Source: an uncultured Gemmatimonadaceae bacterium
GTDB lineage: Bacteria > Gemmatimonadota > Gemmatimonadetes > Gemmatimonadales > Gemmatimonadaceae
NCBI GenBank assembly: GCA_963790305.1
Contig: CAWBOC010000010.1
Span: 1 to 64,000, forward strand
Direction: 5' to 3'
Length of the DNA: 64,000 nucleotides
The translations under genes were made by a program, and so were the position numbers. Positions 1 to 2,685 of this stretch are shown here, one piece after another (positions within the stretch are counted from its first letter, which is position 1; each line of letters begins with the position of its first letter). The notes below the pieces were generated by a model. The model had not been told where the DNA came from and did no database searches. It saw only the letters and a program-made list of their open reading frames with translations.

Positions 1-27
1 CTTCCCCGGGTTTTGTAGACACTGGGG

Positions 28-897
28 TTAACTAGCGCGTTGTAACTCATCTCAGCCTCGACGGGCGTACGATACCCTAACGCGGAATGCCGTCGCTTCC
101 GATTGTACCAGATCTCAATGAACGCGAAGAGCTCACGACTCGCCTGCTCGCGACTGGAGAAGACGCCATCGACGAGCAGTTCCTTCGTCAGTGTCGCAAA
201 GAAACTCTCGGCGACCGCGTTGTCCCAGCAATTACCCACCCGACTCATGCTCGGCGTAAAGCCGGCCGCGCGGAGGAGCGTTTGGTAGGCGCCACTCGCG
301 TATTGCACGCCGCGATCGGAATGATGCAGGCCCCCGCGGGCGCCGCGATGCGTGAGGGCCATGCGGAGCGCGGCGAGCGCGAGCTCCTGGTCCACGCGCG
401 TGCGGAGCGCCCAGCCTACCACGCGGCGCGTCGCCAGATCGAGAATGACGGCGAGATAGAGCCAACCCTCGCGCGTGGCGATGTAGGTGAGGTCCGCCAC
501 CCACACGCGGTCCGGCGCGCCCGCGGCCTCGACCCCGAACTGCCGCGCGAGCACGTTGGGCGCCACCCGCTCGGCGTGATCCGATTGCGTGGTGACGCGA
601 AAGCGCCGCGCACTCTTGGCGCGAATCCCCGCCGCCCGCATCAGCCGCGCGACGCAATGCTTCCCGCACCGAATGCCCAGCGCCCGCAGCTCCTGATGCA
701 CGCGCGGACTCCCGTACGCCCGTGCACCTCCGCATGCACCTGCCGAATCTGTCCCGGAGGCGACGGTCCTCCTGGACCCGCTCCGCGAGCGGACGCGCAC
801 GCCAGGCGTAGTAGCCGGCCCTCGACACCTCCAGCACCCGACACATCGTGGTGATGTGGAAGATGCGGGCGTGCGCGCGGATGAACACGAACCTCAT
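28..897 (-). pseudogene. IS3 transposase OrfB (rve/DDE), frameshifted in this sequence
   Basis: MCRVLEVSRAGYYAW, WVADLTYI, HHSDRGVQYAS, NCWDNAVAESFF and YNRKRRHSALGY motifs, spread over more than one frame. Confidence 0.85.
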
Positions 898-1375: not shown

Positions 1376-2504
1376 TCAGCTTTCCCAGGGTAGACTACGG
1401 ACGCCCAAAGTGACCGTAGTTCGTCGTCTCACGATAAATCGGCCGCCGCAGGTCGAGGCGCTCGATGATCGCGTTCGGCCTGAAATCGAATTTGTCGGCG
1501 ACGTACCGCTCGGCCCGCAGTGGATTGCCCGTTCCAAACGTCTCCACGCTGACGGACACCGGCCGCGGACGGCCGATCGCATAGGCCACCTGCACCTCGC
1601 ACCGGTGCGCGAGGCCCTCGCGCACCACCTGTCGGGCGACGTAGCGACCGAAGTACGCGCCGCTCCGATCCACCTTCGACGGATCCTTCCCGCTGAACGC
1701 GCCGCCGCCGTGGCGCGCCGCGCCGCCGTACGTGTCGACGATGATCTTGCGACCGGTGACGCCGCAGTCGGTCGACGGGCCACCCTCTACGAAGCTCCCA
1801 GTGGGGTTGACCAGGATCGCGAGGTTCTCGTGATGCCACTCGCCGAGCACGTCGGGAATGAGCGAGTCGGTGAGGTACTCGCGAATCGCCACCTGCGTCA
1901 CGTCGGGCGCGTGCTGGGCAGACACGAGCACGGTGCGCACCTCGGCGGGGAAGCCTGACGAGTCGTACGCGACCGAGACCTGCGTCTTCGCATCGGGTCG
2001 CAACCAGGGTGCCTTGCCCGACCTCCGGTCTGCCGCCAGTCGGGCCGCCAGCGCGTGCGCAAGCAGAATCGGGAGCGGCATCAGCGCGTCGGTCTCATCG
2101 GTCGCATAGCCGAACATGAGCCCCTGATCGCCGGCGCCGCCGACGTCGACGCCTTGCTTGATCTCCTGCGCCTGGTGCGAGATGAGCTGCGTCACGCGCA
2201 CGCCATCGGCGTGGAACGCCTCAGCGGGGTCGACGTAGCCGATCGAACGGATGGCCGCGCGAGCGAGCTTCTCGTGATCGACGCGCGCGCTCGAGGTGAT
2301 CTCCCCCGCCAGGACGACGTTGCCCGCCTTGCAGAGGACTTCGCACGCGACGCGCGCGGTGGGGTCCTGCTCGAGGTGCGCATCGAGCACGCTGTCGGCG
2401 ATGAAGTCGCACACCTTGTCGGGGTGACCTTCGGAGACCGACTCCGACGTGAAGACATGGAGGGCGGTGCGGGTAGCGGGGCGAGGTCGTGTCGCGATTG
2501 CCAT
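1376..2504 (-). CDS. metK: S-adenosylmethionine synthetase
   Basis: FTSESVSEGHPDK, GAGDQG, GVTGRKI, GGGAFSGKDPSKVDRS and YGHFGR motifs. The ORF stops at 1395, but the usual LPWE tail follows 1 nt out of frame and ends at 1376 (probable 1-nt insertion). Confidence 0.97.
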
Positions 2505-2539: not shown

Positions 2540-2580
2540 GAGAAAACGGCCTGCGACTCCGAGGAGTCGCAGGCCGTTTC
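2540..2580 (-). terminator. Intrinsic terminator in metK leader (riboswitch expression platform)
   Basis: Minus strand GAAACGGCCTGCGACTCC-TC-GGAGTCGCAGGCCGTTTTCT: long GC-rich stem ending in a U-run, about 35 nt upstream of the metK ATG. Confidence 0.8.
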
Positions 2581-2584
2581 GCCG

Positions 2585-2651
2585 CGACTTAGACGGTTCG
2601 TGCGGGATTGCTCCCGTGCGCGGCCCGTCAAATCGGGGAAATCGCCGCGCA
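2585..2651 (-). ncRNA. SAM-II/SAM-V-like riboswitch aptamer (H-type pseudoknot)
   Basis: P1 TGCGCGG/CCGCGCA; L1 contains GATTT; P2 CGATTTGACGG pairs with CCGTC-T-AAGTCG with one bulged U; CGGGA-GCAA-TCCCG hairpin in L3; lies directly upstream of metK. Confidence 0.72.
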
Positions 2652-2656
2652 TCGGC

Positions 2657-2685
2657 AACATCACTACTCCGGGGCGCCACGTCAA
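2657..2685 (-). promoter_or_regulatory. Putative sigma70 promoter for the riboswitch-metK transcript
   Basis: TTGACG (2685-2680), 17-nt spacer, GATGTT (2662-2657); predicted +1 coincides with the 5' end of the aptamer. Confidence 0.45.

Follow-up and report, generated by a model that had tools for sequence, protein, structure and literature searches.

The stretch analysed here, referred to as the window, comprises 64,000 nucleotides (nt) from an uncultured Gemmatimonadaceae bacterium (contig CAWBOC010000010.1 of assembly GCA_963790305.1, positions 1 to 64,000), and the element in question is the leader of metK, which is read on the minus strand. The gene encodes an S-adenosylmethionine (SAM) synthetase of 369 amino acids and occupies positions 1395..2504, with its start codon at 2504 and Pfam matches to S-AdoMet_synt_N/M/C (E 3e-36 to 3e-58). 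It is separated by a gap of 206 bases from a divergent DUF72 gene, which was likewise identified by its Pfam match. Within this gap lies an H-type pseudoknot (2651-2585) comprising a P1 helix, a U-rich third strand, a P2 helix, and a P3 hairpin, followed by an intrinsic terminator. We consider it likely that this leader acts in cis as a riboswitch with the SAM-II/SAM-V fold, which senses SAM and turns metK off through transcription termination. The support is comparative and comes from covariation of the helices, from conservation of the expression platform, from the gene context, and from leaders in which a known SAM aptamer stands in tandem with the element. What we infer is the nature of the ligand, the triplex, and the kinetics.

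With regard to the architecture of the leader, all features are given on the minus strand. P1 is formed by UGCGCGGC (2651-2644) and GCCGCGCA (2624-2617), as read from the sequence and from covariation. The loop of P1 contains the eight bases of L1, GAUUUC and CC (2643-2636, with GAUUUC at 2643-2638), which presumably act as the third strand of a triplex, and the 5' strand of P2, CGAUUUGACGG (2635-2625). The 3' strand of P2, CCGUC-U-AAGUCG (2596-2585), pairs with the latter and leaves a bulged U at 2591, so that P2 appears as a single continuous helix with one bulged U in the alignment of homologues (A2, described below). L3 comprises the P3 hairpin CGGGA-GCAA-UCCCG (2616-2603), which is the counterpart of P3 in SAM-V, and the linker CACGAA (2602-2597), which is located where SAM-V has its A-minor adenines A40-A42. 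By likeness to SAM-V, the adenines of this linker could also play an A-minor role (PMC6061858, in excerpt). The end of P2 (2585) is 81 nt upstream of the start codon, and the terminator lies in between, with its stem at 2579-2544, its U tract at 2547-2541, and a folding energy of -33.9 kcal/mol. An antiterminator of -14.6 kcal/mol can be drawn between AGUCGCGGC (2589-2581) and GCCUGCGACU (2574-2565), and it has the AGUCG segment in common with the upper part of P2. The leader as a whole folds with a z-score of -4.65, and none of 200 shuffled sequences folds equally well. Upstream of P1, a putative sigma-70-like promoter can be read from the letters, with TTGACG (2685-2680), a spacer of 17 nt, and GATGTT (2662-2657); relatives exhibit TTGAC-N17-GATACT at an equal distance from P1, and transcription would thus start at about 2652-2650, just before P1. 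All the structural pieces listed in the first-pass annotation of this DNA, namely P1, L1, P2, the GCAA hairpin, the alternative pairing, the terminator, and metK, were found at their places on the minus strand.

The leader was recovered by blastn in 16 of 41 genomes, i.e. this genome (G000) and 40 relatives; one genome carries two copies. In the 16 aligned blastn homologues, GCGCGG-Y-GAUUUC, UUG, GGGCCGCG, and CUAAGUCG are all invariant, and the distal part of P2 changes on both strands together (GACGG/CCGUC, GGUGG/CCACC, GAAGG/CCUUC, and GAUGG/CCAUC). When one genome for each prokaryotic species was scanned for the motif, at least 119 matching loci were obtained. The pattern matches listed and the relatives together provided at least 135 occurrences, corresponding to 124 distinct aptamers, which constitute alignment A2. 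The pattern used in the scan fixed GAUUUC, G-R-Y-UUG, GGG, and CUAAGUCG, and only the free columns of A2 are informative. One locus (L011), from the unpublished genome G015, contributes a single row to A2 and to an alignment A1, and no result hinges on it. Another locus, L075, labelled as Chloroflexia, is a chance match to the pattern that lacks P1; it is still counted and kept in A2.

In A2, the pairs of the pseudoknot are formed in 95.7% of the cells, and both-sided changes are observed in 8 of the 19 pairs. None of 500 shuffled alignments reaches the observed value for any of the five measures used, and pairing falls to 29-48% in controls in which the partner was slid by 1-3 columns. Covariation is observed in P1 (columns 5-36, CG 96 and UA 15; columns 4-37, GC 100 and AU 7) as well as in P2 (columns 28-78, UA 65, CG 47, and UG 8; columns 27-79, AU 116 and GC 4; columns 23-84, CG 92 and UG 32). 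Both helices are therefore supported by covariation across the 124 distinct homologues, which is the comparative check that had been proposed in the first-pass annotation. The P3 hairpin is highly variable in sequence and length; it exhibits at least 4 pairs in 115 of the 124 aptamers, with a mean minimum free energy of -9.6 kcal/mol, compared to -4.4 kcal/mol for shuffled sequences. The six aptamers with fewer than 3 pairs have a short L3 (11-14 nt), and at least one A is found among the final five nucleotides of L3 in 111 of the 124. L1 varies in a few relatives, in which it reads GAGUUC, GGUUUC, GAUUUU or GGUUUU (four genomes of one genus). As CGAUUU occurs twice in the leader, pairing of AAGUCG with the first copy, in L1, was considered and rejected, because the natural changes in the second copy, A to G opposite U and U to C opposite G, preserve the pairs and because the GAGUUC variant in L1 of L157 would disrupt it.

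The expression platform was compared in 128 leaders and in two shuffled sets of the same size. Within about 100 nt, 117 of the leaders have a hairpin of -10 kcal/mol or lower with a T tract (14 and 17 in the shuffled sets), an exact complement of at least 5 nt to the 3' strand of P2 is present in 98 (7 and 9), and this complement is located in the 5' arm of the terminator in 90 (0 and 0). The OFF platform of antiterminator and terminator that had been proposed from the letters is thus borne out by the homologues. When calculated as separate duplexes, lower P2 amounts to -6.2 kcal/mol and upper P2 to only -3.1 kcal/mol, compared to -14.6 kcal/mol for the antiterminator, so upper P2 needs extra stabilisation. 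These calculated energies would fit a pre-formed pseudoknot whose upper part needs the ligand to beat the antiterminator. A 249-nt contig from soil metatranscriptomes, found in an 88% likeness search and belonging to a relative of about 92% identity, spans 2449-2650, i.e. through the terminator into metK. It is present in two runs from two studies, with identical differences. None of the sequencing runs contained half of the query words, the shares of the RNA runs being 0.05-0.12. As contigs reveal neither transcript ends nor levels, it is at most a hint that such leaders are transcribed, and an indication that a leader and the beginning of metK can be found on a single contig assembled from RNA; its end at 2650 is a weak hint at the position of the transcription start.

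With regard to the regulated genes, a motif of the MetK N-terminus is found within 700 nt downstream of 98 of the 135 loci, or of 88 of the 124 distinct aptamers. Other downstream genes, assigned by Pfam, are metH in L070 and genes of the Cys_Met_Meta_PP family in L072, L092, L101, L157, and L170; several other downstream proteins have no Pfam match.

In some leaders, the element and its own terminator are followed, about 100 nt further, by a canonical SAM aptamer. These second aptamers were looked for in two Rfam scans, one of 20 loci, with 3 matches, and one of 18 loci at E <= 0.01, with 7 matches. A downstream SAM-I aptamer exceeds the gathering score in L010 (47.9 bits), and L027 and L152/L074 reach 41-43 bits for a cut-off of 44.4. 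A downstream SAM_alpha aptamer, i.e. SAM-II, exceeds the gathering score in L101, L011, L157, and L170, and L015 and L069 reach 33-34 bits for a cut-off of 36. SAM-I-like sequences downstream of nine further elements (L013, L025, L059, L103, L109, L128, L129, L161, and L163) were not counted, because they have no Rfam match at E <= 0.01. The element described here comes first in the tandems with SAM-II (L157:1501-1575 with 1673-1744, L170:1501-1576 with 1677-1752, and L101:1501-1563 with 1666-1741) as well as in the tandem with SAM-I (L010:1518-1575 with 1676-1782). These four leaders precede a gene for a Cys/Met pyridoxal phosphate (PLP) enzyme or a protein without Pfam match, and the tandem with SAM-II before the Cys/Met PLP enzyme gene recurs in the four genomes, all of one genus, whose L1 deviates as described above. 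In Pelagibacter, SAM-II and SAM-V are arranged in tandem, as two classes for one ligand.

We mapped the leader onto SAM-V using the metY sequence and numbering of 'Candidatus Pelagibacter ubique' (PDB 6FZ0; PMC6061858, in excerpt). The third strand G5-G11, which lies in the major groove of P2, corresponds to 2644-2638, and its uridines U8-U10 correspond to 2641-2639. U19, U20, and G21, on the 5' strand of P2 at the ligand site, are equivalent to 2631-2629. U47, the partner of the adenine of SAM, is equivalent to U2591, and A48 and A49, which form the triples flanking the sulfonium, are equivalent to A2590 and A2589. The P3 hairpin in L3 of SAM-V corresponds to 2616-2603. On this mapping, the nucleotides that contact the adenine and the sulfonium in SAM-II and SAM-V are kept in this RNA, and the pocket motifs pointed out in the first-pass annotation (GAUUU, UUG, and CUAA with a bulged U) agree with both the SAM_alpha consensus and SAM-V.

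SAM-V (RF01826) thus shares with this RNA the H-type pseudoknot, the third strand with three uridines directly after P1, the UUG on the 5' strand of P2, the C-U-AA with a bulged U on the 3' strand, and a P3 in L3 followed by an A-containing linker. In contrast, the paired G at position 2588 and the C/U opposite to it replace A50 and A18 of SAM-V, respectively. Upper P2 is continuous and Watson-Crick here (A-U, G-C, C-G), whereas that of SAM-V contains an A:A pair, a trans-Hoogsteen U:A pair, and a bistable P2a of 2 bp that holds the Shine-Dalgarno sequence. Five pairs are found below the bulged U instead of four, and P1 has 7-8 pairs instead of 4. Moreover, an intrinsic terminator takes the place of the translational control of SAM-V, and the hosts are soil Gemmatimonadales and Vicinamibacteria instead of marine bacteria. 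SAM-II (RF00521) resembles this RNA by its fold, by the Y-G closing P1 and followed by GAUUU, by UUG and CUAA (Rfam consensus), by its association with the methionine/SAM regulon, and by its mode of control, the majority of SAM-II riboswitches being transcriptional (PMC6061858, in excerpt). Likewise, a SAM-II riboswitch was predicted to terminate transcription (PMC9373788, in excerpt). SAM-II differs from this RNA by its CUAAA, by the absence of P3, which is general in SAM-V (PMC6061858, in excerpt), and by its separate, stable, GC-rich P2a; in this genome, SAM-II precedes metH and an ATP-grasp gene rather than metK. Two of the novelties initially put forward for the leader therefore fail: the L3 hairpin is not an extra, because SAM-V has P3 at that place, and the transcriptional platform is not distinctive among aptamers said to control mostly translation, because most SAM-II are already transcriptional. 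The CUAAG change and the host lineage, on the other hand, are real differences from the known classes. Two further families are more distant. SAM-II long loops (RF01726), presented by its authors as extending the SAM-II riboswitches (PMC2864571, in excerpt), is reported from Bacteroidetes and marine sequences. The SAM/S-adenosylhomocysteine (SAH) family (RF01727) is also an H-type pseudoknot before metK, in which the adenine forms a pair with a uridine and is stacked within the helix (PMC7367207, in excerpt). In contrast to the present RNA, it lacks the GAUUU triplex strand and discrimination by the sulfonium, is translational, and belongs to Rhodobacterales.

At the gathering scores of Rfam 15 (36 bits for RF00521, 41 for RF01826, and 44 for RF01726), no Rfam family matches in the window. 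The six Rfam matches listed on 2450-2760 are of microRNA-type models on the terminator hairpin, and similar. Across the genome, RF00521 matches five places at E <= 10, the metK leader not being among them. Two of the genome's sequences are canonical SAM-II aptamers (42 and 40.4 bits), located outside the window and followed by terminator-like hairpins: L144:1501-1572 (G000:C10:423813-423884) precedes the ATP-grasp (LysX-like) gene and L145:1501-1575 (G000:C9:977838-977912) precedes metH. An ATP-grasp gene of this type is an unusual target for a SAM riboswitch. RF01826 has no match in the genome at E <= 10, and the best matches of RF01726 are a canonical SAM-II, with 20.7 bits, and another place, with 15.2 bits, none being on the metK leader. 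By contrast, a covariance model built from A2 (R1) gives the metK leader 81.3 bits, as the sole credible copy in the genome; an 18-bit match of R1 (G000:C5:44569-44632) was rejected, since the motif is absent from it.

On the basis of these comparisons, the following mechanism can be proposed. The transcript would begin just upstream of P1, which folds, and pairing of the strong lower P2 (GACGG/CCGUC) would then pre-organise the RNA as an H-type pseudoknot. The bulged U2591 would face the intercalated SAM, and the uridines of L1 would dock in the major groove against the U-A pairs of upper P2, a triplex role that is suggested by analogy. Binding of SAM would stabilise the weak upper P2 (CGAUUU/AAGUCG) and thereby sequester AGUCG. 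The antiterminator (2589-2581 with 2574-2565) would be blocked, the terminator (2579-2544) would form, and the polymerase would stop before metK. When SAM is absent, AGUCGCGGC would be free to pair with the terminator's 5' arm, and read-through would follow.

Several observations weigh against this proposal. The most significant concerns the residue equivalent to A50 of SAM-V, which is G2588 here, a G in all 16 blastn homologues and paired with C (92) or U (32) in the 124 aptamers. In SAM-V, A50 faces A18 and binds the amine and carboxylate of SAM through its Watson-Crick edge, and its replacement by inosine severely reduces SAM binding (PMC6061858, in excerpt). As A50 has become G and inosine at A50 cripples binding, the way in which SAM-V holds the amino-acid end cannot apply as such. 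In addition, three nucleotides must bridge five levels here, compared to four in SAM-V, because GAUUU starts right after P1 while lower P2 has five pairs. The terminator is also far more stable than the antiterminator (-33.9 versus -14.6 kcal/mol), and read-through therefore depends on kinetics. Neither the promoter nor the terminator was called at the leader by a simple consensus scan; for the latter, the first U residues pair with the AAA at the base of the stem and mask the U tract, which is probably why the scan missed it. The SAM families, the SAH family, and RF01727 give no match on 2450-2760 even at E <= 10, including the SAM_alpha, SAM-II_long_loops, and SAM_V models that had been proposed as a check in the first-pass annotation. 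No second aptamer was found at E <= 0.01 in 11 of the 18 scanned loci, and the element is patchy in both of its lineages. Finally, the invariance of the fixed letters in A2 is by construction, and evidence for these letters comes only from the 16 blastn-found sequences and from the matches of the covariance model.

The replacement of A50 could also mean that the same fold binds another or a broader set of ligands, such as SAH, both SAM and SAH, or another adenosyl compound, with the contact to the amino-acid end being replaced. G2588, with its C/U partner, sits exactly where SAM-V uses the edge of A50 to bind the amine and carboxylate of SAM, the dominance of metK among the downstream genes is reminiscent of the SAM/SAH riboswitches (PMC2864571 and PMC7367207, both in excerpt), and the tandems with canonical SAM aptamers could serve as gates for two ligands. 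However, the equivalents of U9, U20, and the A48 triple, which flank the sulfonium, are conserved, which argues for discrimination between SAM and SAH; RF01727 and the SAH family give no match at the threshold mentioned above; switching off metK, metH, and sulfhydrylase genes is what the usual SAM regulon does; and the Pelagibacter tandem mentioned above also joins two classes for one ligand. We therefore regard such a change of ligand as unlikely.

That the leader is an ordinary diverged SAM-II or SAM-V, in which the G for A and the longer P2 are neutral drift and which Rfam misses owing to narrow seed alignments, appears quite improbable to us. The topology and most of the pocket nucleotides are indeed identical, and the Rfam models cannot score the pseudoknot and penalise the insertion of P3. 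Nevertheless, the CUAAA of SAM-II and the CUAAG of the present type occur side by side within single genomes, and even within single leaders, with no intermediates seen; the R1 score of 81 bits on the leader contrasts with about 5 bits on each canonical SAM-II aptamer of this genome; and the altered position is a direct ligand contact in SAM-V. The absence of any metabolite sensor, i.e. a pseudoknot and terminator controlled by a protein, a small RNA, or Mg2+/temperature, would fit a terminator that is very stable on its own, but it is very hard to reconcile with near-invariant single-stranded and bulged nucleotides that match the SAM pocket of SAM-II/V, with a regulon confined to methionine/SAM genes, and with tandems with SAM-I and SAM-II aptamers.

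Within the preferred reading, that of a SAM-sensing OFF switch, the element is, judged by its sequence, a separate subclass, characterised by a paired G in place of the adenine at the amino-acid end, an upper P2 that is fully Watson-Crick, and a lower P2 that is one pair longer than in the metY SAM-V. No curated Rfam family covers it, and the candidate new variant suggested in the first-pass annotation indeed matches none of the Rfam SAM models. No description of it was found in full-text searches, whose coverage leaves out subscription journals. It is conceivable, although we would not favour it, that the element goes further and constitutes a class of its own, which descends from the SAM-II/V fold and reads the amino-acid end anew through a Watson-Crick G-C/G-U pair. 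If so, its affinity or selectivity could differ, for example by tolerance of tail-modified adenosyl-sulfonium compounds, or its set-point could be another, and its arrangement in series with canonical SAM-I or SAM-II aptamers would form a two-threshold or two-ligand gate. The subclass adds a conserved and easily recognised member to the SAM-II/SAM-V fold in two poorly studied soil phyla, in which the annotation of Rfam 15 leaves these metK leaders blank. As the sole changed position of the pocket is a direct ligand contact in SAM-V, the subclass offers a natural experiment on recognition of the methionine end of SAM, and the recurrent tandems provide a ready system for asking why two sensors are stacked for what is probably one metabolite. 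For annotation, the element can be recognised by P1, Y-GAUUUC, G-R-Y-UUG, CUAAGUCG, and a terminator with CGCGAC in its 5' arm.

The element is found in Gemmatimonadales and in acidobacterial Vicinamibacteria. According to the record titles of the at least 119 loci listed, 49 are Gemmatimonad* (including one Roseisolibacter and Gemmatimonas), 63 are Acidobacteri*/Vicinamibacter*, and 7 are other, the chance match L075 among them. In an evenly drawn sample of 151 genomes from the phylum, R1 detected the element in 12, all from two families in one order. It is also present in 18 of 121 genomes of the class of one acidobacterial holder. Three copies are located on one chromosome titled Gemmatimonas sp., and one copy on an acidobacterial chromosome.

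A few copies deviate from the general scheme. In a subgroup comprising L068, L103, and L129, the 3' strand of P1 is one C shorter, and the short L3 (13 nt) has no P3. A second copy located about 900 nt from a standard one, L164:1501-1571 (-), exhibits CCAAG instead of CUAAG and AUCUU instead of GAUUU in L1. The former change converts the adenine-pairing U to C, while P1, P2, and P3 are intact and the copy scores 45 bits; it may be either decaying or of changed specificity. The deviant copy of L161 likewise looks decayed or re-specified.

Some of the downstream genes are less expected. An operon encoding a 1-Cys peroxiredoxin, an OsmC-like protein, and a Cys/Met PLP enzyme follows the riboswitch in three loci (L043:785-1498 (-), L082:787-1500 (-), and L097:786-1499 (-)), whereas L136 and L137, which are short, show no more of it than the peroxiredoxin. 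Peroxide-defence genes would thus be tied to SAM control, which is an unexpected coupling. A conserved protein of about 265-280 amino acids, with no Pfam match, follows the riboswitch in L167:1575-2492 (+), L169:1659-2492 (+), L080:1563-2483 (+), and L098:1649-2482 (+), and a dual-specificity-phosphatase-like gene comes next in L080 and L098. One chromosome titled Gemmatimonas carries two copies of this riboswitch and gene, about 31 kb apart. The riboswitch suggests that this protein may be linked to SAM.

In the window itself, an IS3-type transposase (rve integrase core with HTH_21) is located at 3-800 (-), about 600 bases 3' of metK, and is cut off by the beginning of the contig. The element is also found, in good copies, on records titled cyanobacterium, Cyanobium, and Acidimicrobiia (L073, L094, and L120). 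L094 exhibits a compensatory P1, and both L094 and L120 are on contigs shorter than 3 kb; these odd labels may reflect binning or labelling errors, or transfers.

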